A stretch of 64,000 nucleotides of DNA from Patescibacteria group bacterium (GTDB lineage Bacteria; Patescibacteriota; Microgenomatia; 2-02-FULL-39-11). The stretch is taken from assembly GCA_023379265.1 (NCBI GenBank), contig JAMCUI010000009.1, forward strand, positions 167,802-231,801, in the 5' to 3' direction. The notes below the pieces were generated by a model that was given only the letters and a program-made list of their open reading frames with translations, had not been told where the DNA came from and did no database searches. Below are positions 3,777 through 23,855 of the stretch, one piece after another. Position 1 is the first letter of the stretch; the number at the start of each line of letters is the position of its first letter. Position numbers and translations under genes: made by a program.

Positions 3777-5993
3777 ATGCCGACAATTGACGATTTACGA
3801 CAAATCAGGATAGACAAACTGGAAAAGCTCAGGAAAATGGGGATAGATCCGTATCCGGCCAAAGTAGAAAGAGGGGAAAGTTTGGCTATTGCACGCGATA
3901 GGCTTGAAAAGCCGGTAAAAGTCATAGGTAGAATTGTGGCCATGCGTGGACATGGCGGGCTGATTTTTGCAGATATCGTTGACGAAAGCGGGAAAATTCA
4001 AGTAGCCTGTAAGGAAGATCAATTGGAGGAAAAAGCCTTTGAGCTGCTGCCCCTTCTAGATATAGGCGATTTTATTGCTGTCCAGGGGAACGTGGGAAAA
4101 ACTGTAGCAGGAGAGGTTACTGTTTTTGCTGATAGATTGCAGATTATTACTAAATCTCTAAACCCGTTGCCTGATAGGTGGTACGGTCTTAAAGACATTG
4201 AAGAGCGTTACCGCAAGCGTTATGTGGACATGCTTTTGAACCGGGAGGTAAAAGATCGGCTGACAAAGCGAAGCCAGGTAATTGGAGCGATGAGGGAATT
4301 TCTTATAAAAAGAGGTTTTATTGAGGTTGAAACTCCCACATTGCAGCCTATTTATGGTGGAGGGTTTGCCAGGCCTTTTGTCACACATCACAACGTTTTG
4401 GATACTGATTTTTATCTTCGTATTTCTGATGAGATGTACTTAAAAAGGCTTATCGTAGGAGGTTTTGAGAAGGTTTTTGAAATTACAAAGGTTTTCCGCA
4501 ACGAAGGAATCGATCACGACCATAATCCGGAATTTACCATGTTTGAGGCACAGATTGCTTATGAAGATTACAGTTTTGGGATGGATATTACAGAGGAAAT
4601 TATTGAATACACTGCCAAAAAAATCCTAGGTAAAACCGCTTTTTCCTATCAGGGTACGGCAATGGAGGTGGCGCGTCCCTGGCAAAGATACAAACTTACT
4701 GAAGCAATTAGTCGTTTTACCGGTTTTGATCCGATGAAATGGCAGACATTGAGTGAAGCCCGTGAGGCTGTAAGACAAATGGATATTCCGGAAGATAAGC
4801 TTTCTCTTATGAAACAGGTGAGAACTTTGGGAGAAATGATAGCCTTTGCTTTTGAACACGCAGTGGAGAAAAAACTTATGCAGCCCACAATTATTTATGA
4901 TTTTCCAATTGAGGTTTCTCCACTTGCAAAAAAATGCGACGATCCCCGGTTTACCCAACGGTTTGAAGTGTTTGCATTTGGTTCTGAATTGGGAAATAAC
5001 TATACAGAACTCAATGACCCTTTGGATCTCTTAAAAAGATTTATAGAAGAGAAAAAAAGGGAAGCGGCAGGTTTTGCTGAAGCCCAACAGACAGATTACG
5101 ATTATATTGAGGCTATAGAGCACGGGTTTCCTCCAACGTGCGGTTTAGGTATTGGTATTGATCGATTAGTGATGCTTTTGACTGACGCCAAAAACATAAA
5201 AGAAGTAATACCTTTTCCGACACTGCGTCCACAGCAGCCAAGCGGACACGAAAAAAAGGTTGAAGCGCAGGATAGTCAGGTTAAGATAGATAATGTCAAT
5301 ATTATTTCCAAACCTGATTATTTCAGCATTTCAGCTGATTTGGGGAAAGCATTTCCTTCATTGTCTGTTGGTATTGCTCTTATTAAAGGTGTAAATATAA
5401 AAAAAAGCGATCCGGCACTTGAACTTGAGAAAGAAAATTTCCTGGAACTCTTAACGGGATTGACTAATGACGTGATTAGCGGTTATAAGGAAGTATTAAG
5501 CTATAGGAAGCTCTATAAGGCTATGGGTGTCGATTGGCATTCCCGCCGTCCTTCTCCTGAAGCGCTTTTGCGCCGTGTATCCCAGGGGAAAGGACTTTAT
5601 ACAGTAAATACTTGTGTTGACGCTTATAACTTGGTTGTAATGAAGAACAGGGTCTCGGTTGGCGCTTTTGACGCAAAAAACGTACACTTTCCTACCGTAT
5701 TGCGTTTTGCTGCAGGGGGAGATGAGATACTTCTTTTAGGAGATAAGGAGCCAACAAAATATACTGTTTGGGAGTTAGCCTATTATGACAAGTTGGGCGG
5801 GTTTAATATAGATTTCAATTATCGTGATGCACAAAGGACTATGGTGACAGAGGAAACAAAAGACATATGGATAAATGTTGATGGTATATTTGATATAATA
5901 CCTTCTCAAGTTGAAGAAAGCCTTAAGTTATCTGTAAATTTAATAAGGAAATACTGCGGCGGCGATGTCGAATTTATGGGTGTCGTAGTATAG
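3777..5993 (+). CDS. lysS: lysyl-tRNA synthetase (class II) fused to a C-terminal PheT-type B3/4 domain
   Basis: The N-terminal ~500 aa carry the anticodon-binding OB fold and class II motifs (FRNEGIDHDHNPEFTMFEA; GFPPTCGLGIGIDRLVMLL). Residues ~520-738 (VNTCVDAYNLVVMKNRVSVGAFDAKNV...VLRFAAGGDEILLLGDKEP...) match the B3/4 domain of Phe-tRNA synthetase beta. Confidence 0.85.
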   Translation: MPTIDDLRQIRIDKLEKLRKMGIDPYPAKVERGESLAIARDRLEKPVKVIGRIVAMRGHGGLIFADIVDESGKIQVACKEDQLEEKAFELLPLLDIGDFIAVQGNVGKTVAGEVTVFADRLQIITKSLNPLPDRWYGLKDIEERYRKRYVDMLLNREVKDRLTKRSQVIGAMREFLIKRGFIEVETPTLQPIYGGGFARPFVTHHNVLDTDFYLRISDEMYLKRLIVGGFEKVFEITKVFRNEGIDHDHNPEFTMFEAQIAYEDYSFGMDITEEIIEYTAKKILGKTAFSYQGTAMEVARPWQRYKLTEAISRFTGFDPMKWQTLSEAREAVRQMDIPEDKLSLMKQVRTLGEMIAFAFEHAVEKKLMQPTIIYDFPIEVSPLAKKCDDPRFTQRFEVFAFGSELGNNYTELNDPLDLLKRFIEEKKREAAGFAEAQQTDYDYIEAIEHGFPPTCGLGIGIDRLVMLLTDAKNIKEVIPFPTLRPQQPSGHEKKVEAQDSQVKIDNVNIISKPDYFSISADLGKAFPSLSVGIALIKGVNIKKSDPALELEKENFLELLTGLTNDVISGYKEVLSYRKLYKAMGVDWHSRRPSPEALLRRVSQGKGLYTVNTCVDAYNLVVMKNRVSVGAFDAKNVHFPTVLRFAAGGDEILLLGDKEPTKYTVWELAYYDKLGGFNIDFNYRDAQRTMVTEETKDIWINVDGIFDIIPSQVEESLKLSVNLIRKYCGGDVEFMGVVV

Positions 5994-19857: not shown

Positions 19858-20526
19858 ATGAAAAGTCTGAAACAGGCAGTATTTTTTTTGACCTTATTTT
19901 CTGTAACTTTATTTTTACCCCAGTCAGTTTTTGCTGACGGCGCATACGGTGGAGGATGTACTCCAGTTTACGGTGGAGGAGTACAGTGTCCACGAGTCGG
20001 ACAAGTTCTAGTAAATAAGACTGTACAAAATCCAGCAACAGGAGTTTTTGTCGACAATCTTGGTCCGGCAGACCCCAAATATCGTCCCGAACAGGTAGTC
20101 ACTTTCCATATCGATGTGCAAAATTCCGGTGACCAGACTTTGGATGCTGTCACTGTGAAGGATACGTTACCGGCATATGTGGATTTTATGTCTGGCCCTG
20201 GCAACTATGATGCTAATTCTCGTGTCTTGACCTTTACCGTCAATAATCTGGCGGGAGGAACTGACCAGCAATATGAGGTGAAGGCAAGAACAGTCCATCC
20301 GGCTGTTTTGCCGTCAAATAAAAATGTGGTCTGTCTGGTAAACATGGTGGATGCTACCAGTGGAGATCAGTCTGATCACGACGAAAGCCAATTTTGTATA
20401 GAAAAACAGATAACCGTGACCTCAGCGCCTTCTGCAGGTCCCCAGCATTGGATGTTGACACTAGCAGGCCTGGGATCAGCACTTGTATCTGGTTTGTATC
20501 TGAGAAAAAAAGCGATTATTGGTTAA
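19858..20526 (+). CDS. secreted DUF11 (conserved-repeat-domain) cell-surface protein with C-terminal membrane anchor
   Basis: Signal peptide MKSLKQAVFFLTLFSVTLFLPQSVFA. DUF11-like FHIDVQNSGDQTLDAVTVKDTLPAYVDF. C-terminal hydrophobic helix plus LRKKAIIG. Confidence 0.6.
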   Translation: MKSLKQAVFFLTLFSVTLFLPQSVFADGAYGGGCTPVYGGGVQCPRVGQVLVNKTVQNPATGVFVDNLGPADPKYRPEQVVTFHIDVQNSGDQTLDAVTVKDTLPAYVDFMSGPGNYDANSRVLTFTVNNLAGGTDQQYEVKARTVHPAVLPSNKNVVCLVNMVDATSGDQSDHDESQFCIEKQITVTSAPSAGPQHWMLTLAGLGSALVSGLYLRKKAIIG

Positions 20527-20866
20527 AAAATTGGTAGTTAGCGGTTGATGGTCAATTATCCTCTTTTCTTGTTCTGCCCGGAACGGGATGGAGTAAAAGG
20601 TTTCCTCCCCTCCGACAGGCAAGAGGATATTTTTGTAAGAGTTTCCCGGCGCAGAAGGGATTATTCTTACAAATAGAGAGAAATTGTAAAGATTTCGAAC
20701 TGTCTGTAAGAGCAGTATTAACAATTAAATAGAGATTAAATCCAGAATGGAGGGAAATTGATCGTGTGTAATGTGTGATGAGCATAGCCCACCACAATAA
20801 TTTCTTTTCATCTTGGGTTTAATTTATCTCGCCGAAGCTTTAGCGTAGGCGGAACCTAAGTCAATC

Positions 20867-20896
20867 TGGAAGATAAGCAGTCTATTGCGATTGCAG
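20867..20896 (+). repeat. copy C of the recurrent intergenic core motif (GGAaGATAAGcAGTCTATtGCGATtGCAG)
   Basis: Aligns to cores at 6664-6692 and 58344-58372. Confidence 0.35.
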
Positions 20897-21464
20897 ACTC
20901 AGACAGATTGAAGAGTTGGAAGTTTTAGTTTTTGGCTTAGTTCAAACAGCAACTAATCACCAACAGCTAATAACCGATAACTATTCCGATATTTTATCGG
21001 AATTGCACTTTAAAAACCAGAAACGCAATAGGGAGTTTCTGTCCCGAGTTTTACGAAGGATAGAATTACTCTCAATTGTCCCGAGAGAAATCGAGGGACA
21101 ATAAAAAATTGGTTGTTTTCAATTGACAGGCTCAGTTCTCAGGGGGCGACCCTTTGATGCCGGAAATTTGCGAATAATTGTTATGAGTAATGGGTTCAGT
21201 TTTCAAACACACAACACACCACGCGTAACACAAAACATATTATCCGCAGTTTTCCGGTATCTTGGGGTAGAAATATAGTCAATTCGATTGGGCTAGGAGG
21301 CTAAAAAAGAAGCCTGATCACAGAAAACAGCATCGCAGTCATTACCCTGAGATTGTCGAATCTGAACCTCTACGCCGGATAACGAGGTAGACGAGTTGAA
21401 GTTTAGCATGTTTCCAAAGACCTAAGGGAATTTGGGATAATCAGAACACCTTTGGAGGTGAACC

Positions 21465-22205
21465 ATGGGTACCATCGGTACCATTCTCGTTACGTCCGTT
21501 TTGTGCTTGGTCGGTCTCGCCGTGCTGGGCGTCGCGTTCTTGGTGGGCGCATTCACGGCGAAGAAGCAAGGTGAAGAAGAAAGTGTGCCGACCTCGCGGC
21601 GTCTCGGACGCGGCTTTTCGTTTGCGTTGTGGACCGGTATGGCGATGCTCATCATTGGCGGACTGTGCATGTTCTCTATCGCGGCTGTGTCGGTGGCGTC
21701 TCAGTTTGCGTCGAACCCGCCTGCACTAGTCGCGCCCGCGAACCCGCCCGTCAATCCTGCGCCCGTCAACCCGGCGCCCGCGAACCCGCCCGTCAATCCT
21801 GCGCCCGTCAACCCGGCGCCCGTCGCGCCCGTCAATCCGCCCGCGAACACTGGGGCGTCTGATCCTTGGGGACTCTCCACCATGTCGGTGGCTGATGCCC
21901 AGCAATGGCTCTCGAAGAACATCGGCGGCTCCGCCGACAAGTGGACGCCGCGCAACGACGAACACACGATGTGGGGCTACTGGGACCAAGATCACAAGGT
22001 GACGTTTCGTCACCCGGGAAACAACTCGATGCTCACGTATTGGAACGGGTTTCCCGAACCGCAAAATGCGCGCGGCTGTTGGGTGCAAGTGCCCAAGAAA
22101 AGCGACCGCTGGGACGGTACGACGCGCACGGTGCAATGTCCGACCGCTGGGGCTACGTTTGAAGCAGATGGTGTGGGTTTCCACCCCGTCGCGCCGAACA
22201 ACTAG
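21465..22205 (+). CDS. hypothetical membrane protein encoded in a GC-rich island (2 TM, Pro/Asn-rich NPAPVNPxP repeats, C-terminal Trp-rich domain)
   Basis: This ORF runs through the GC-rich island; the minus-strand ORFs there are Arg-rich antisense artefacts. Codon usage is GC3-rich, unlike the neighbouring genes. Confidence 0.5.
   Translation: MGTIGTILVTSVLCLVGLAVLGVAFLVGAFTAKKQGEEESVPTSRRLGRGFSFALWTGMAMLIIGGLCMFSIAAVSVASQFASNPPALVAPANPPVNPAPVNPAPANPPVNPAPVNPAPVAPVNPPANTGASDPWGLSTMSVADAQQWLSKNIGGSADKWTPRNDEHTMWGYWDQDHKVTFRHPGNNSMLTYWNGFPEPQNARGCWVQVPKKSDRWDGTTRTVQCPTAGATFEADGVGFHPVAPNN
21738..21821 (+). repeat. perfect 42-bp tandem duplication inside the CDS (encodes ANPPVNPAPVNPAP x2)
   Basis: gcgaacccgcccgtcaatcctgcgcccgtcaacccggcgccc occurs twice back to back, and a partial third unit follows. 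Confidence 0.9.
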
Positions 22206-22230
22206 TTCCGGCAATCGTGCGACGCGCACC

Positions 22231-22270
22231 AAAGGCGGCCCCCGATGGGGAATCAAGCGGGGCCGCCTTT
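22231..22270 (+). terminator. GC-rich hairpin (aaaggcggcccc / ggggccgccttt) downstream of the island CDS
   Basis: 12-bp perfect inverted repeat with a 16-nt loop and A/T flanks (bidirectional-terminator-like). No long T-run. Confidence 0.4.
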
Positions 22271-22302
22271 ACCGGCGACTCCGCTTCTCCCTGGGGGAGA
22301 AA

Positions 22303-22325
22303 AAAGGTTGAATAGTTCAACCTTT
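22303..22325. terminator. 10-bp hairpin (aaaggttgaa / ttcaaccttt) flanked by an A-run, acting as a terminator for minus-strand transcription
   Basis: On the minus strand the stem is followed by TTTTTTCTC. It marks the right edge of the island. Confidence 0.35.
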
Positions 22326-22529
22326 CTGGGACAATACCACCCGGATAAAGTGCCAAGGGCACAAAACTATATGGACAACCAAAAAGGAAGGGATGGATGG
22401 CGAAAGCTGTCTCAAGTCGTGACTTTTTGTCACACTTTTTCTCTTTCTTGCGTTTCTGGTTGTTCTTTTGATCTTAAGGATACTTGAGGTCAGAAGAATA
22501 AGTATTTTTATGTTGAGAATATAGCAGGT

Positions 22530-23855
22530 ATGATGAAAAGATTAATACAGACTTATAACCATCAGGACACACTCCTCATGGTTTCGCTATACCCCAAAAA
22601 AGGGGAGCTTTACTCATCCGGCACATCCGGGCTGGCTTCTTATGCCAAAAACATAGTAACTCATATGAATCACAGGATAGTAGTGCTTGCGGATAGACAC
22701 GGCAAGAAAGATGAAATATATGAAGAAAAAGGAGTACTGGTGTTGCGCTGCTTTGAGAGGAACAACCCTTTGCTTTGGTTTCAAATATTAAAAAAATTAT
22801 TCTTATTTCCAGCAGCCAGAAGTATACTGATTCAATTTGATTTTGCCGTTTACGGAGGGAATTTACCCACTTTTTCCATAGTTTTTTTCCTGGGAATATT
22901 GAGATTTATGGGAAAACAAGTTTCAATTGTCATGCATCACGTGGTACTGGATGCTTTCAAACTTAAAGGTCATATCGGGCTTAAGGATAACTTTGCCGGC
23001 CTTATAAAAGGAAGTTTATACAACGCTATATTTCAACTATTTTACCGTCTATCATGCCACTTGTCAGATAAAACAGTAGTCCTTGAAGAAGCATTGAGAC
23101 AGAATTTAGGAAAAATTGTTGATAAAGATAAGATAGTGACAATTCCCCATGGAGTTGATACGGAAATCCAAAATTTGGAAAAGGAAGAATCACGCAAAAA
23201 ACTCAAGATTGGTAAAGACGAGTATGTAGTTATGTTTTTTGGTTATATCAATTGGTTTAAGGGAGCGGATTTCTTTGTGGAAGCATTTGGAAATGTGGAA
23301 AAGGTGTTAAATAAAAATACAAGATTTATTCTAGCCGGTGGAGAAAGTCCAACAATGATTGATAGGCCACACTACCGCGATTACTATGGAAAAATCATAG
23401 ATAGCGCAGGGAAATCTCATAAAGTTGAGATTACCGGCTATATACCCCAGAAAGATTTAGCTGCCTATTTTTCGGCGGCTGATATTATAGTCTTGCCTTA
23501 CCGCCATTTTATGACCGCTTCAGGCGTACTCTCGCTGGTCTTTTCCTACAGAAAACCATTTATAATTTCCGAAGAATTAAAGAGTATGTTTGATTCTGAG
23601 GATTTTCGGGATGCACTGTCATCTTCAGGTCTGAAGATATCTGATATGGTCTTTGAACTAGATCATAAATCATGCCTGTCAACAGCAGAAAATGTGTTGG
23701 TAAACGGTTTGAAAGCTAAGATGACCAGGATGGCAGGAATAATCAGAGAGAAAAGATCATATAGAAATACTGCAATGATATACGACAATATAATATCACC
23801 ACATAATCATTACTCTCTTCATAAACTGCAGACTCTAGGTTATACTCAAAATTGA
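22530..23855 (+). CDS. glycosyltransferase family 4 (GT-B, group 1)
   Basis: C-terminal GT1 signature FGYINWFKGADFFVEAF...ADIIVLPYRHFMTASGVLSLVFSYRKPFIISE. Confidence 0.7.
   Translation: MMKRLIQTYNHQDTLLMVSLYPKKGELYSSGTSGLASYAKNIVTHMNHRIVVLADRHGKKDEIYEEKGVLVLRCFERNNPLLWFQILKKLFLFPAARSILIQFDFAVYGGNLPTFSIVFFLGILRFMGKQVSIVMHHVVLDAFKLKGHIGLKDNFAGLIKGSLYNAIFQLFYRLSCHLSDKTVVLEEALRQNLGKIVDKDKIVTIPHGVDTEIQNLEKEESRKKLKIGKDEYVVMFFGYINWFKGADFFVEAFGNVEKVLNKNTRFILAGGESPTMIDRPHYRDYYGKIIDSAGKSHKVEITGYIPQKDLAAYFSAADIIVLPYRHFMTASGVLSLVFSYRKPFIISEELKSMFDSEDFRDALSSSGLKISDMVFELDHKSCLSTAENVLVNGLKAKMTRMAGIIREKRSYRNTAMIYDNIISPHNHYSLHKLQTLGYTQN

Follow-up and report, generated by a model that had tools for sequence, protein, structure and literature searches.

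An old GC-rich gene for a predicted surface protein in an AT-rich Patescibacterial genome, probably of Chloroflexota-like origin and framed by a covarying long-range helix

The 64-kb stretch of DNA analysed here in its full length (the window) raises the question of how one single gene of GC-rich composition has come to reside in AT-rich surroundings and by which processes this composition has been preserved. The open reading frame concerned, hereafter gene X, has a GC content of 0.625 with values of 0.60, 0.54 and 0.74 at the three codon positions, and positions 21465-22300 reach 0.63 compared to 0.389 in the remainder of the window. Among all 840-bp windows across the 64 kb the island ranks first (z = 6.6), followed by a runner-up of 0.485, while GC3 ranges from 0.28 to 0.51 in all 29 other long genes. 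Recoding of the X protein with the codon usage of the host leads to a GC3 of 0.41 and a GC content of 0.51, as opposed to the observed 0.74 and 0.63. The abrupt GC-rich island with a gene of foreign look, which a preceding sequence-only reading of this DNA had pointed out, is hence confirmed by composition (0.625 versus 0.389). Taken alone, a GC-rich foreign-looking gene is an ordinary observation.

The genomic neighbourhood of X comprises genes for ATP synthase, MFS, DUF11 and glycosyltransferase proteins (Table 1), with the host being Patescibacterial according to the NCBI naming of identical neighbouring proteins; the downstream GT4 sequence is exactly MCL4338734.1, 'glycosyltransferase [Patescibacteria group bacterium]'. 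After GT4, the glycosylation cluster encodes a membrane protein of 495 aa, a protein of 1289 aa that matches GT-C weakly, an S26 peptidase and YfhO, and the genome is probably of the Microgenomates type. The gene order DUF11/CLIPPER gene, X and GT4 glycosylation operon is found on at least 12 independent contigs from approximately eight diverged Patescibacterial lineages, namely in the window together with L001, in L002, L003-5, L006, L007-9, L020 and L022/23 and on one JGI contig (L numbers designate relatives). Equally, L021 carries X on a contig too short to reach the neighbouring genes. In those relatives with readable DNA, the gene has a GC content of 0.565-0.67 and a GC3 of 0.58-0.77 and forms a GC island in each such lineage, with a flank GC of 0.34-0.41 where several kb of flank are present and of 0.42-0.59 on the short contigs L020 and L021. 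GGAGG-type sites precede X also in L007 and L022. The island represents a real and functional gene of its Patescibacterial (CPR) host.

Table 1. Features of the X locus in window coordinates
Feature	Positions	Strand	Basis
Upstream neighbour, DUF11/CLIPPER-repeat surface protein	19858..20526	+	Pfam PF01345 at 8.8e-12; syntenic in relatives
938-bp non-coding stretch upstream of X	20527..21464	+	longest ORF <= 62 aa
Anchor motif GCAC-N-TTAAAAA and 5' arm of long-range helix (core 21015-21028)	21005..21035	+	inverted repeat I3
Long imperfect hairpin in 5' non-coding region	21149..21268	+	inverted repeat I1; -43.9 kcal/mol, z = -4.6
Shine-Dalgarno sequence GGAGGTGA	21454..21461	+	3 nt upstream of X ATG; read from sequence
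Gene X, 246-aa membrane-anchored surface protein (predicted), the GC-rich island	21465..22205	+	ORF list, composition, twelve homologues, dN/dS, synteny
Membrane anchor at the N-terminus (aa 1-83), a pair of TM helices with K/R-rich loop between	21465..21713	+	AF2 helices 3-34, 43-83
Stalk rich in Pro (19 of 51 residues), aa 84-134, with predicted disorder	21714..21866	+	pLDDT < 50 for residues 84-122; composition
Perfect 42-bp tandem duplication encoding 14 aa, with strain-to-strain polymorphism	21732..21822	+	TRF 2.2 copies, 100% identity
C-terminal ~112-aa orphan domain of X	21867..22202	+	one helix and eight strands, 8 Trp, 2 invariant Cys
Conserved 324-bp non-coding stretch between X and GT4	22206..22529	+	89% identity to L002, blocks up to 98%
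GC-rich hairpin, 12-bp stem, no U-tract after	22231..22270	+	perfect stem 22231-22242/22259-22270; -26.5 kcal/mol
Alternative conserved hairpin, sharing bases with 3' arm of 22231-22270 hairpin	22255..22286	+	RNAalifold
Small hairpin TTCTCC-CTGG-GGAGAA, then conserved GGGGGARARRRGGKTGA-type motif	22285..22301	+	alignment
10-bp hairpin, A-run before, T-run after	22303..22325	.	perfect stem 22303-22312/22316-22325; conserved in L002
3' arm of long-range helix (core 22448-22461), 68 nt upstream of GT4 start	22441..22464	+	pairing and duplex energy
19-bp hairpin with U-run, terminator-like	22460..22501	+	terminator scan; fold z = -4.2
GT4-family glycosyltransferase as downstream neighbour, opening the envelope-glycosylation cluster	22530..23855	+	Pfam

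With respect to the gene product, the prediction of a 2-TM protein with a Trp-rich C-terminal domain holds (two predicted TM helices; 8 Trp in 112 residues). As judged from predicted topology, the N-terminal anchor would reside in the membrane and a Pro-rich stalk would expose a compact ~110-aa Trp/His-rich β-domain as its tip, while X orthologues possess a single TM helix or a lipoprotein-like leader in place of the two-helix anchor. The exact 42-bp tandem duplication previously noticed is real as identified by TRF, although its placement at 21738-21821 was off by a few bases, with the copies located at 21732-21773 and 21774-21815. In L001, a contig 99.7-99.96% identical, one 42-bp copy fewer gives a protein (P0001) of 232 aa, and stalk length might shift by repeat slippage. 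Stalked surface proteins with spacers rich in Pro and repeats of polymorphic length are represented by Gram-positive adhesins, and P/T-rich linkers occur in secreted proteins of Chloroflexota; X shares with them the succession of anchor, extended Pro-rich linker and terminal globular domain. As in other stalked wall- or membrane-anchored surface proteins, where tandem-repeat slippage varies the length of the linker and alleles are hypervariable, linker length in X varies by tandem repeats.

The C-terminal domain is the conserved part among the 12 X homologues, with the invariant motifs F.H.G, LTYW and DGVGFH, and members of the domain family occur also in other architectures. The β-domain is probably disulfide-bonded. 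The family is tiny and unannotated, as 63 matches have been retrieved among 1.84 billion representatives, with no match to X in Pfam, NCBIfam, PHROGs, PDB sequences, plasmid or viral sets and no fold neighbour of the C-terminal domain in the PDB. A phage or plasmid origin is equally unsupported by matches in viral contigs, PHROGs and PLSDB. Outside of Patescibacteria, homologues are located on GC-rich Chloroflexota-type contigs, where they do not constitute compositional islands; a taxon name is available for only two of these non-Patescibacterial homologues, one from a Chloroflexaceae MAG and one from a Litorilinea aerophila MAG, and the GC content of the other homologue contigs is 52-67%. 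The most likely function of X is that of an adhesin or extracellular binding module directed at an envelope polymer, perhaps one of a Chloroflexota host; on the other hand, the invariant His and Asp residues of the domain could equally well indicate an enzyme.

In a neighbour-joining tree the ten Patescibacterial clade sequences all group together with moderate support (bootstrap 68/100 over 111 columns), and genomic context, checked for nine of the ten, is syntenic throughout, for P0003 via the downstream intergenic sequence alone. The clade lies within a set of homologues carried by Chloroflexota-type contigs of high GC, and its sister P0034 resides in 59% GC DNA. The suggestion of a high-GC donor, actinobacterial or other, consequently stands with regard to relatives in high-GC organisms, which are however of the Chloroflexota type and not Actinobacteria. 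Because the copies from Patescibacteria make up a single clade inside the GC-rich members of the Chloroflexota type, a single ancient transfer is the simplest history; direction and single origin of this transfer are deduced from the tree. X would have been transferred once from a high-GC Chloroflexota-like donor into a Patescibacterial ancestor, and would have landed in the gap between the gene for the DUF11/CLIPPER surface protein and the envelope-glycosylation operon. X occupies the same slot in all approximately eight lineages of the clade and is absent only from the more distant L025. The borders of X display no mobility genes, tRNA or flanking direct repeats, the sole tRNA of the window being located at 2707-2781. 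A comparable situation is provided by episymbiotic CPR bacteria such as Saccharibacteria on Actinobacteria hosts, which carry host-derived genes. X resembles these genes in being surface-related, in residing in a reduced genome and in having its closest relatives in another phylum with larger genomes that might provide the host; it differs in that the donor group would be Chloroflexota, that the family is uncharacterised and that the link to a host is hypothetical, with a literature search for a host relationship between Patescibacteria and Chloroflexota having returned nothing usable.

The evolution of X within the clade has characteristics of its own. The C-terminal domain shows a dN/dS of ~0.06-0.08 at a dS of 1.4 to >3, and the gene has been preserved by purifying selection. 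At four-fold sites of X, identity between lineages amounts to only 15-41%, close to the random level, and nonetheless the G+C content of these sites is 47-76%. Between L006 and L007, dS is 2.2 in X as compared to 0.20-0.26 in the flanking genes, and the GT4 of L020 is 90-91% identical to its counterparts in L006 and L007 with the X domain merely 64-65% identical, such that alleles of X are much older than their flanks. Since closely related genomes hold very different X alleles, these comparisons indicate replacement of alleles by recombination, and X behaves like a hypervariable surface locus with polymorphism in stalk length and recombinational exchange of alleles. At the same time, the GC-rich codon usage has not decayed to the AT-rich usage of the host despite complete synonymous turnover. 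No neutral model accounts for this absence of GC3 amelioration, and a force beyond neutral mutation must hold X GC-rich. The most likely candidates are GC-biased repair associated with recombination and selection acting on the mRNA; repeated re-import from a hidden high-GC reservoir would account for the persistent GC3 as well. Polarisation of AT-to-GC versus GC-to-AT substitutions with outgroups was given up due to saturation of the outgroups.

Horizontally acquired genomic islands reportedly adapt to their host with time according to an amelioration model ascribed to Lawrence and Ochman. X resembles such islands in its sharply deviating composition and codon usage, in its relatives in a donor group of matching composition and in the nesting of its clade within theirs; unlike such islands, X is bordered by neither mobility genes nor tRNA, is present in every related lineage examined that carries the family and is unameliorated in spite of saturated synonymous sites. 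GC-biased gene conversion, said to have been described in recombining bacterial genes by Lassalle and co-workers in 2015 with a genome-wide effect of a few percent of GC3, shares with X a recombining, allele-replacing locus with elevated GC3. The excess in X, however, amounts to 25-40 points and affects one gene only.

How firmly does an ancient transfer stand against other histories of the island? Misjoining of a high-GC fragment into an AT-rich contig, the assembly or binning chimera previously considered on account of the abrupt switch in composition, is refuted and its probability practically nil, as both junctions recur in independent samples and with independent assemblers (Logan, NCBI MAGs, JGI contig), are identical in a Logan contig from another sample (99.7-99.96% identity) and homologous in a relative at ~84-90% nucleotide identity, and as X and both flanks co-diverge. 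Recent horizontal acquisition, with GC richness owing to the short time since arrival, was the other explanation offered and would be in line with the strong compositional contrast, the foreign codon usage and the high-GC genomes of the relatives of X. It is very unlikely, being contradicted by the same slot in approximately eight lineages with neighbour proteins only 42-86% identical and synonymous sites saturated; divergence of X matches or exceeds that of the flanks, and the mobility signatures sought at its borders are lacking. As judged from these sequence comparisons, X is not a recent acquisition. A different history assumes repeated independent imports, by which each lineage would re-acquire alleles from high-GC Chloroflexota, perhaps its hosts, into the same slot, so that X always appears young. 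Such imports would account for the persistently high GC3, for alleles older than their flanks and for the unrelated, likewise GC-rich gene that occupies this slot in L025, and are nevertheless unlikely considering that all ten clade sequences group and the nine context-checked ones are Patescibacterial, that no sequence of high-GC context falls inside the clade among 1.84 billion representatives and that replacement from another phylum would have to proceed without flanking homology upstream.

The single ancient transfer of X leaves the non-coding surroundings to be considered. The long gene-free stretch of ~940 bp noticed upstream of X indeed comprises the 938 bp from 20527 to 21464 without an ORF above 62 aa, contains no pseudogene of the genes found at this place in relatives and is 71% to 98% identical to L002 depending on the block. 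Rfam returned nothing relevant for the whole window at gathering thresholds or for 20450-22600 at E <= 5. The hairpin at 21149-21268 has conserved arms and a deleted apex in L002, with apparent compensatory changes at at least two positions upon reading of the alignment. Downstream of X, fold z-scores are -4.4 for 22206-22340 and -3.4 for 22336-22470. Both right-hand hairpins described by the sequence-only reading exist with perfect stems of 12 and 10 bp. The arms of the former (22231-22270) are conserved in L002 and L003 and weakened in L022; the alternative hairpin at 22255-22286, which is the MFE element in L003 and L022, retains 11 pairs in four of four sequences (RNAalifold on the window, L002, L003 and L022), two of them with compensatory changes (C-G/U-A and G-C/A-U). 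The arms of the small hairpin read TTCTCC/GGAGAA in the window and L002 and TTCCCC/GGGGAA in L003 and L022. The hairpin at 22303-22325 resembles a terminator mainly on the minus strand (z = -4.3, versus z = -1.6 on the plus strand), with the T-run of a terminator on the minus strand only; for its proposed role as a leftward terminator no leftward gene ends there, and it belongs to a conserved structured 3' region. A consensus terminator scan picks 22460-22501 on the plus strand rather than 22231-22270 or 22303-22325. This terminator-like hairpin, with its core GATCTTAA...TTGAGGTC conserved in L002, L006, L007 and L020, lies ~30 nt upstream of the GT4 start codon and abuts the 3' arm of a long-range helix.

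This long-range helix frames the slot of X. Its cores are exact 14-nt complements, and 22 of the 24 positions of the arms pair, including two G:U on the plus strand, with a duplex energy of -29 kcal/mol. Inverted repeats flanking the slot are exact over 11-14 bp in several lineages and match at 12/13 to 12/14 positions in L022 and L025. The helix spans 1.0-2.7 kb and occurs as five covarying sequence variants in six lineages with the same register of the 5' arm to the TTAA motif. Ten consecutive columns (10-19) pair in six of six lineages with two to four pair types each, and 85 of 96 cells are paired in register versus 30-49 of 96 with the partner slid. Every wobble is U:G or G:U in the plus-strand reading, and the pairing pattern suggests an RNA stem in the plus-strand transcript, which might serve to process or stabilise this transcript or to provide coupling with the glycosylation operon. 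Long-range processing stems bracket rRNAs for RNase III or 23S intervening sequences, and hok-type mRNAs fold 5' to 3'. As in rRNA-bracketing stems, ORF-containing 23S intervening sequences and hok-type fold-back, two short covarying complementary segments are present at the X locus, 1-3 kb apart around a GC-rich unit as in long-range processing stems. In contrast to rRNA stems, the unit enclosed would be a protein-coding gene with long UTRs, and the core helix has only 11-14 bp (~20-24 bp with bulges) and no Rfam match.

Alternatively, the bracketing inverted repeat might constitute DNA recombination sites of an inverton or a cassette exchange system, with X phase-variable or swappable and no RNA helix involved. 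Inverted repeats of 11-14 bp flanking a surface-protein gene, arms that covary as expected with one recombinase using both, and alleles replaced between close relatives would fit; this assumption is distinctly unlikely, given the identical orientation of X relative to GT4 in all ~12 contigs (at the contig level), no recombinase within 10 kb in the window, mismatches that are exactly those giving G:U pairs in plus-strand RNA and a divergence of L006 and L007 that does not begin at the arms. A comparison of L006, L007 and L020 likewise revealed no clean breakpoints of a cassette at the arms of the helix. An integron gene cassette is unlikely because there is no integrase in the neighbourhood and a single gene at a fixed locus. 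Furthermore, islands of high GC within AT-rich genomes often correspond to RNA genes such as rRNA or ncRNA, and the GC richness could derive from a structured RNA or an overlapping antisense gene with the plus-strand ORF being secondary. The long antisense ORF 21726-22256 and the structured, conserved flanks would agree with this explanation, which is hardly tenable in the face of clear protein-level conservation (dN/dS ~0.07) with homologues in other architectures, of folding of the CDS inconsistent relative to shuffles (z = +0.45, -1.8, -2.6), of no Rfam family match and of antisense frames not kept open in orthologues; the structured CDS RNA was dropped for its inconsistent z-scores and the antisense gene for its unconserved frames. 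That X is subject to local hypermutation, by a diversity-generating retroelement or otherwise, is barely conceivable, even though Avd-like 23S_rRNA_IVP genes (PF05635/bAvd) adjoin the slot in L002, L003 and L025 and X evolves faster than its flanks. No second copy of any part of the island that could be a template repeat exists in the 64 kb, no reverse-transcriptase gene is among the neighbours examined, and variation extends over the whole gene at low dN/dS rather than affecting adenines within a C-terminal patch; with no remnant of an IVP/Avd gene in the 938-bp gap either, this candidate was dropped.

The more distant L025 extends the picture of the slot, as it holds a different orphan gene for a secreted protein, o220, which is equally GC-rich and followed by a motif like the GGGGGARARRRGGKTGA-type motif. 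Homology of X and o220 is unsupported (hhalign probability 0.65%), and a database search with o220 returned solely its own sequence. L025 hints that GC richness may be tied to the slot or the type of gene and not to donor ancestry alone. A wider proposal, which we regard as doubtful, is that Microgenomates-type Patescibacteria might maintain a dedicated helix-closed 'surface-gene slot' for swapped, persistently GC-rich genes of stalked proteins (X, o220), at least one of them derived from Chloroflexota, with GC actively maintained by biased repair or mRNA selection and X acting as a host-recognition adhesin pointing to Chloroflexota hosts.

Altogether, we consider it probable that X is an old foreign surface-protein gene from a Chloroflexota-like source, kept GC-rich and with replaced alleles in a slot closed by a covarying helix. 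If this reading is true, X would provide a clear example from nature in which a transferred gene does not drift to the composition of its host despite full synonymous turnover, a persistence that contradicts the expectation from standard amelioration reasoning. The covarying long-range helix around a protein-coding gene is a new finding and could, if correctly interpreted, constitute a new way of mRNA processing or regulation in these organisms. Equally, an uncharacterised extracellular domain family common only to Chloroflexota-type organisms and one CPR group would, if this holds true, give a concrete lead toward the host of these uncultured Patescibacteria.

The GC-rich island described in the sequence-only reading is real. 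Its single gene, X, codes for a 246-aa membrane-anchored protein and has a GC content of 62.5% (0.60, 0.54 and 0.74 at the three codon positions) against 38.9% for the 64-kb window without this ORF; in a scan of the 64 kb it forms the top 840-bp GC window (z = 6.6) with the runner-up at only 0.485, and GC3 in the 29 other long genes of the window is 0.28-0.51. The perfect 42-bp tandem duplication (2.2 copies of the unit at 100% identity by Tandem Repeats Finder), the two hairpins 3' of the gene and the gene-free upstream stretch are equally found as described (Table). An assembly or binning chimera, considered in the same reading, is refuted by the recurrence of the island and its neighbours in two further contigs, both with the gene neighbours of the window: L001, a 43-kb Logan contig from a different sample carrying a 232-aa homologue, and L002, a 217-kb NCBI MAG contig carrying a 187-aa homologue. 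Across 20.7 kb L001 and the window share 99.7-99.96% identity, and within 20400-22600 they differ solely by one 42-bp repeat copy and one synonymous SNP, so that the duplication is a strain-level polymorphism of stalk length; the 232-aa homologue, retrieved by protein search, equals exactly the 246-aa protein with one 14-aa repeat copy removed. The L002 flanks are 84-90% identical to the window, and both junctions of the island recur there.

Neighbour proteins identical to those of the window carry the NCBI name 'Patescibacteria group bacterium' on a 355-kb contig, and orthologues of the 495-aa neighbour are named Shapirobacteria, Roizmanbacteria (Microgenomates-type) and, in one case, Giovannonibacteria. 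The MAG of L002 (also L011; GCA_964520615.1, CAZFNL010000137.1) is labelled 'uncultured Gammaproteobacteria bacterium' with the gene order of the window; as its ATP synthase β subunit falls into a common 90% cluster with a protein named Patescibacteria, the MAG is probably mislabelled. For the 495-aa neighbour, a polytopic membrane protein, homologues exist in at least 186 clusters (90% identity), and all that carry a taxon name are Patescibacteria of the three groups mentioned. Neither Pfam nor NCBIfam has a match to this protein, whose family is uncharacterised and up to now has named members in CPR bacteria only.

Table. Features of the island locus and of related contigs (window positions unless a contig is named)
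Feature	Location	5' arm	3' arm	Remark
X	21465-22205 (+)			246 aa
DUF11/CLIPPER gene	19858-20526			upstream surface-protein gene
GT4 gene	22530-23855			glycosyltransferase
495-aa membrane protein	23860-25347
Gene-free stretch	20527-21464			938 bp; ORFs all ≤62 aa
42-nt repeat	21732-21822			exact copies 21732-21773, 21774-21815
Long-range helix, window and L002	21012-21035/22441-22464	AACCAGAAACGCAA	TTGCGTTTCTGGTT	exact; motif + 5' arm 21005-21035
Long-range helix, L003		AGGGTTCAGGA	TCCTGAACCCT	exact
Long-range helix, L022		AAGGGTTCAAGAG	CTCTTGAGCCCTT	one U:G
Long-range helix, L006, L007, L009, L020		ACGGAAATGCAGA	TCTGCATTTCCGT	exact
Long-range helix, L025		AAACAGGGTTCAGG	CCTGGGCCCTGTTT	two U:G
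Terminator-like long hairpin	20558-20635	ATCCTCTT	AAGAGGAT	closing stem, then T-run; just 3' of DUF11/CLIPPER gene; L022 about 4410-4495
Small perfect hairpin	20984-21002	TTCCGATA	TATCGGAA	TTT between arms; immediately 5' of GCAC-N-TTAA motif
Small perfect hairpin, L002		TTCCGATG	CATCGGAA	TTT between arms
Long imperfect hairpin	21149-21268			120 nt; -43.9 kcal/mol; z = -4.6
12-bp hairpin	22231-22242/22259-22270			-26.5 kcal/mol
Alternative hairpin	22255-22286			shares 3' arm of 12-bp hairpin
10-bp hairpin	22303-22312/22316-22325			terminator-like on minus strand only
19-bp hairpin with U-run	22460-22501	GATCTTAA	TTGAGGTC	core arms; about 30 nt upstream of GT4 start; abuts 3' arm of long-range helix
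o220	L025 5040-5702			220-aa secreted or anchored protein; GC 0.56, GC3 0.60; locus 37.6% GC
Accessory genes in gap	L002 7923-8303; L003 1086-1445; L025 2238-6598; L009 133-1873
ORF 5' of X	L006 7597-7998; L021 3-362			133 aa; 119 aa
P0007 N-terminal extension	L020 396-1322
P0009 fusion	L010 2278-3150			67% GC contig

Recent acquisition, as the sequence-only reading had proposed, is rejected, since X occupies the same slot in far-apart lineages and its synonymous sites have turned over completely. The order MFS gene (minus strand), DUF11/CLIPPER gene, X, GT4/GT1 glycosyltransferase, 475-495-aa membrane protein and ~1250-1290-aa protein recurs in the lineages represented by the X-family proteins P0004 (L003-5), P0006 (L006), P0005 (L007-9), P0007 (L020), P0021 (L022/23) and P0033 (a JGI contig); on the 1.2-kb contig of P0003 (L021) only conserved downstream intergenic sequence is visible. 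X is a GC island in every lineage with readable DNA (gene GC 0.565-0.67, GC3 0.58-0.77), with surroundings of GC 0.34-0.41 in lineages with several kb of flank. Between lineages the glycosyltransferase, 495-aa and large proteins are 42-86% and the X domain 52-90% identical, and four-fold degenerate sites are near random identity (X 0.15-0.41; flanks 0.25-0.39 between deep lineages). The Nei-Gojobori dS of the X domain is 1.4 to >3 with a dN/dS of ~0.06-0.08, and the protein is therefore under purifying selection.

The foreign origin from a high-GC donor has, on the other hand, gained support, and homologues in contigs of 52-67% GC point to a donor among Chloroflexota-type organisms. Only 63 family members, 46 of them below 1e-10, emerged from an exhaustive profile search across 1.84 billion representatives; they are mostly membrane- or lipid-anchored with P/T-rich linkers and in some cases carry an extra N-terminal domain. 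Where the DNA was examined, members outside the Patescibacterial clade reside without compositional island in those 52-67% GC contigs, two of which are named Chloroflexota MAGs (Chloroflexaceae and Litorilinea aerophila). A neighbour-joining tree built from 50 domains unites ten sequences in a single clade that is nested within the rest (bootstrap 68/100); all nine examined for context (P0001-P0007, P0021, P0033) sit in the Patescibacterial slot, and the sister sequence, P0034, in 59% GC DNA. Viral and plasmid searches found no copies. The best reading, one old transfer out of a Chloroflexota-like donor, is moderately supported, and rated no higher because the tree is short and named donors are few. 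Another family member, P0009, forms an in-frame fusion with ~70 aa from the N-terminus of an ABC-transporter ATPase, immediately 3' of OppC-like permease genes; a frameshift, a real insertion or a join made in assembly may account for it.

Beyond the ordinary is that codon usage has stayed GC-rich over the long term although divergence is saturated. Despite complete synonymous turnover, the G+C content of four-fold sites is 47-76% in X versus 31-46% in the flanks. Under host codon usage the X protein would give a GC3 of 0.41 and a GC of 0.51 instead of the observed 0.74 and 0.63, and the GC excess is therefore about half due to amino-acid composition and half to codon choice. With two-state relaxation an initial GC3 excess of ~0.4 should shrink to a few points after such substitution, so that the composition of X would be held away from host equilibrium; the cause we can only infer. 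The 495-aa marker gene, whose distribution is much wider than that of X, led to the relative L025. This contig lacks X (no HMM match), and its helix-bounded gap contains an Avd-like gene, a PDDEXK gene, a toxin-antitoxin pair and the GC-rich gene o220. Homology of o220 to X is not detectable (hhalign probability 0.65%) and a database search returned its own sequence as the sole match; a motif resembling that after X also follows its stop codon. GC richness is not imposed on every gene in the slot, since AT-rich genes lie in the same gap; still, two unrelated GC-rich stalked-protein genes in one slot weaken the view that GC-richness simply reflects the donor. The gap between CLIPPER and glycosyltransferase genes gathers accessory genes in several relatives, including 23S_rRNA_IVP/bAvd-like, PDDEXK_3, DUF433/DUF5615 toxin-antitoxin and rve integrase genes, and is an insertion hotspot.

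Equally beyond the ordinary is the swapping of alleles at this fixed locus. X has a dS of 2.2 between L006 and L007, where the two genes downstream have 0.20-0.26; for the window versus L002 the values are 2.3 for X and 0.9-1.4 for the surroundings. The N-terminus of the L020 glycosyltransferase is 90-91% identical to those of L006 and L007, but the X domain of L020 only 64-65%, as distant as from X of the window. Closely related genomes thus carry old, differing X alleles, which indicates recombinational replacement or trans-species polymorphism, a pattern typical of exposed surface proteins. The N-terminal anchor and stalk vary more than the X domain, with two TM helices in the window and one TM helix or a lipoprotein-like leader in other alleles, and the P0007 allele has additional N-terminal sequence. 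P0003 and P0006 belong to a subgroup in which X is immediately preceded by another, moderately GC-rich ORF encoding a C-terminal TM helix; the P0007 extension resembles it, as judged by eye.

The slot is bounded by an inverted repeat with a counterpart in every lineage, the sequence of which differs while complementarity is preserved (five variants of an 11-14-bp core). The motif GCAC-N-TTAA(A/C)AA always precedes the 5' arm, the 3' arm lies 8-105 nt upstream of the glycosyltransferase start in lineages with X, and the arms span 1.0-2.7 kb. With the sequences aligned at TTAA, all six lineages pair in ten successive columns, each of which shows 2-4 pair types; in register the pairing cells number 85 of 96, versus 30-49 of 96 with the partner slid by 1-4 nt, and the only non-Watson-Crick core pairs are G:U or U:G wobbles workable in plus-strand RNA. 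Arms serving as DNA recombination sites of an inverton would also form an inverted repeat, but all ~12 contigs show X in one and the same orientation and its neighbourhood in the window contains no recombinase, which makes this reading less favoured. In-register covariation and fitting wobbles rather speak for an RNA helix, formed within a transcript that passes through X in the direction of the glycosylation operon. This covarying kilobase-range helix, its RNA nature proposed from sequence comparison, likewise exceeds the ordinary; it might form a stalk for processing, stabilise the transcript by folding back, or compete with the terminator-like hairpin next to it.

Further structures populate the non-coding flanks. 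The region 3' of the X stop codon is conserved in the window, L002, L003 and L022, and the alternative hairpin there is kept in all four with compensatory changes (C-G to U-A, G-C to A-U); it and the 12-bp hairpin are mutually exclusive with a U-run after neither, and could constitute a structural switch. The 10-bp hairpin had been read as a leftward terminator, for which the minus strand offers nothing to terminate. The 19-bp hairpin, its core conserved in L002, L006, L007 and L020, may be an attenuator or leader of the glycosylation operon. Upstream, the long hairpin with its closing stem conserved in L022 is probably the DUF11/CLIPPER gene terminator, and the small perfect hairpin shows a compensatory change in L002, with a hairpin at this position in other lineages too. 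The 120-nt hairpin has conserved arms and a deleted apex in L002; weak Rfam miRNA-precursor matches on both strands merely reflect the hairpin.

AlphaFold predicts for X TM helices at 3-34 and 43-83, a disordered Pro-rich stretch at 84-122 and a confident C-terminal domain which, modelled alone (pLDDT 93, pTM 0.85), consists of one helix and eight strands. By the positive-inside rule the K/R-rich inter-TM loop would be cytoplasmic, placing stalk and domain outside the cell, and one 14-aa repeat unit would change stalk length by roughly 4 nm if extended. Cys205, Cys225, His183, His240 and Asp235 are invariant, as are the motifs IGG..WT, F.H.G, LTYW, G.TR and DGVGFH. The invariant His, His and Asp are compatible with a small metallo-enzyme, which X could be. 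The anchor, the stalk, the aromatic-rich, probably disulfide-bonded domain, the hypervariability of the protein and the location between the DUF11 gene and a glycosylation cluster (GT4, 495-aa membrane protein, a 1289-aa protein with a weak GT-C match, S26 peptidase, YfhO) suggest instead that X binds outside the cell, for example as an adhesin or a binding module for an envelope polymer. Patescibacteria are commonly episymbionts, and outside them the domain occurs only in Chloroflexota-type organisms, which makes it an attractive hypothesis that X may recognise a Chloroflexota host.
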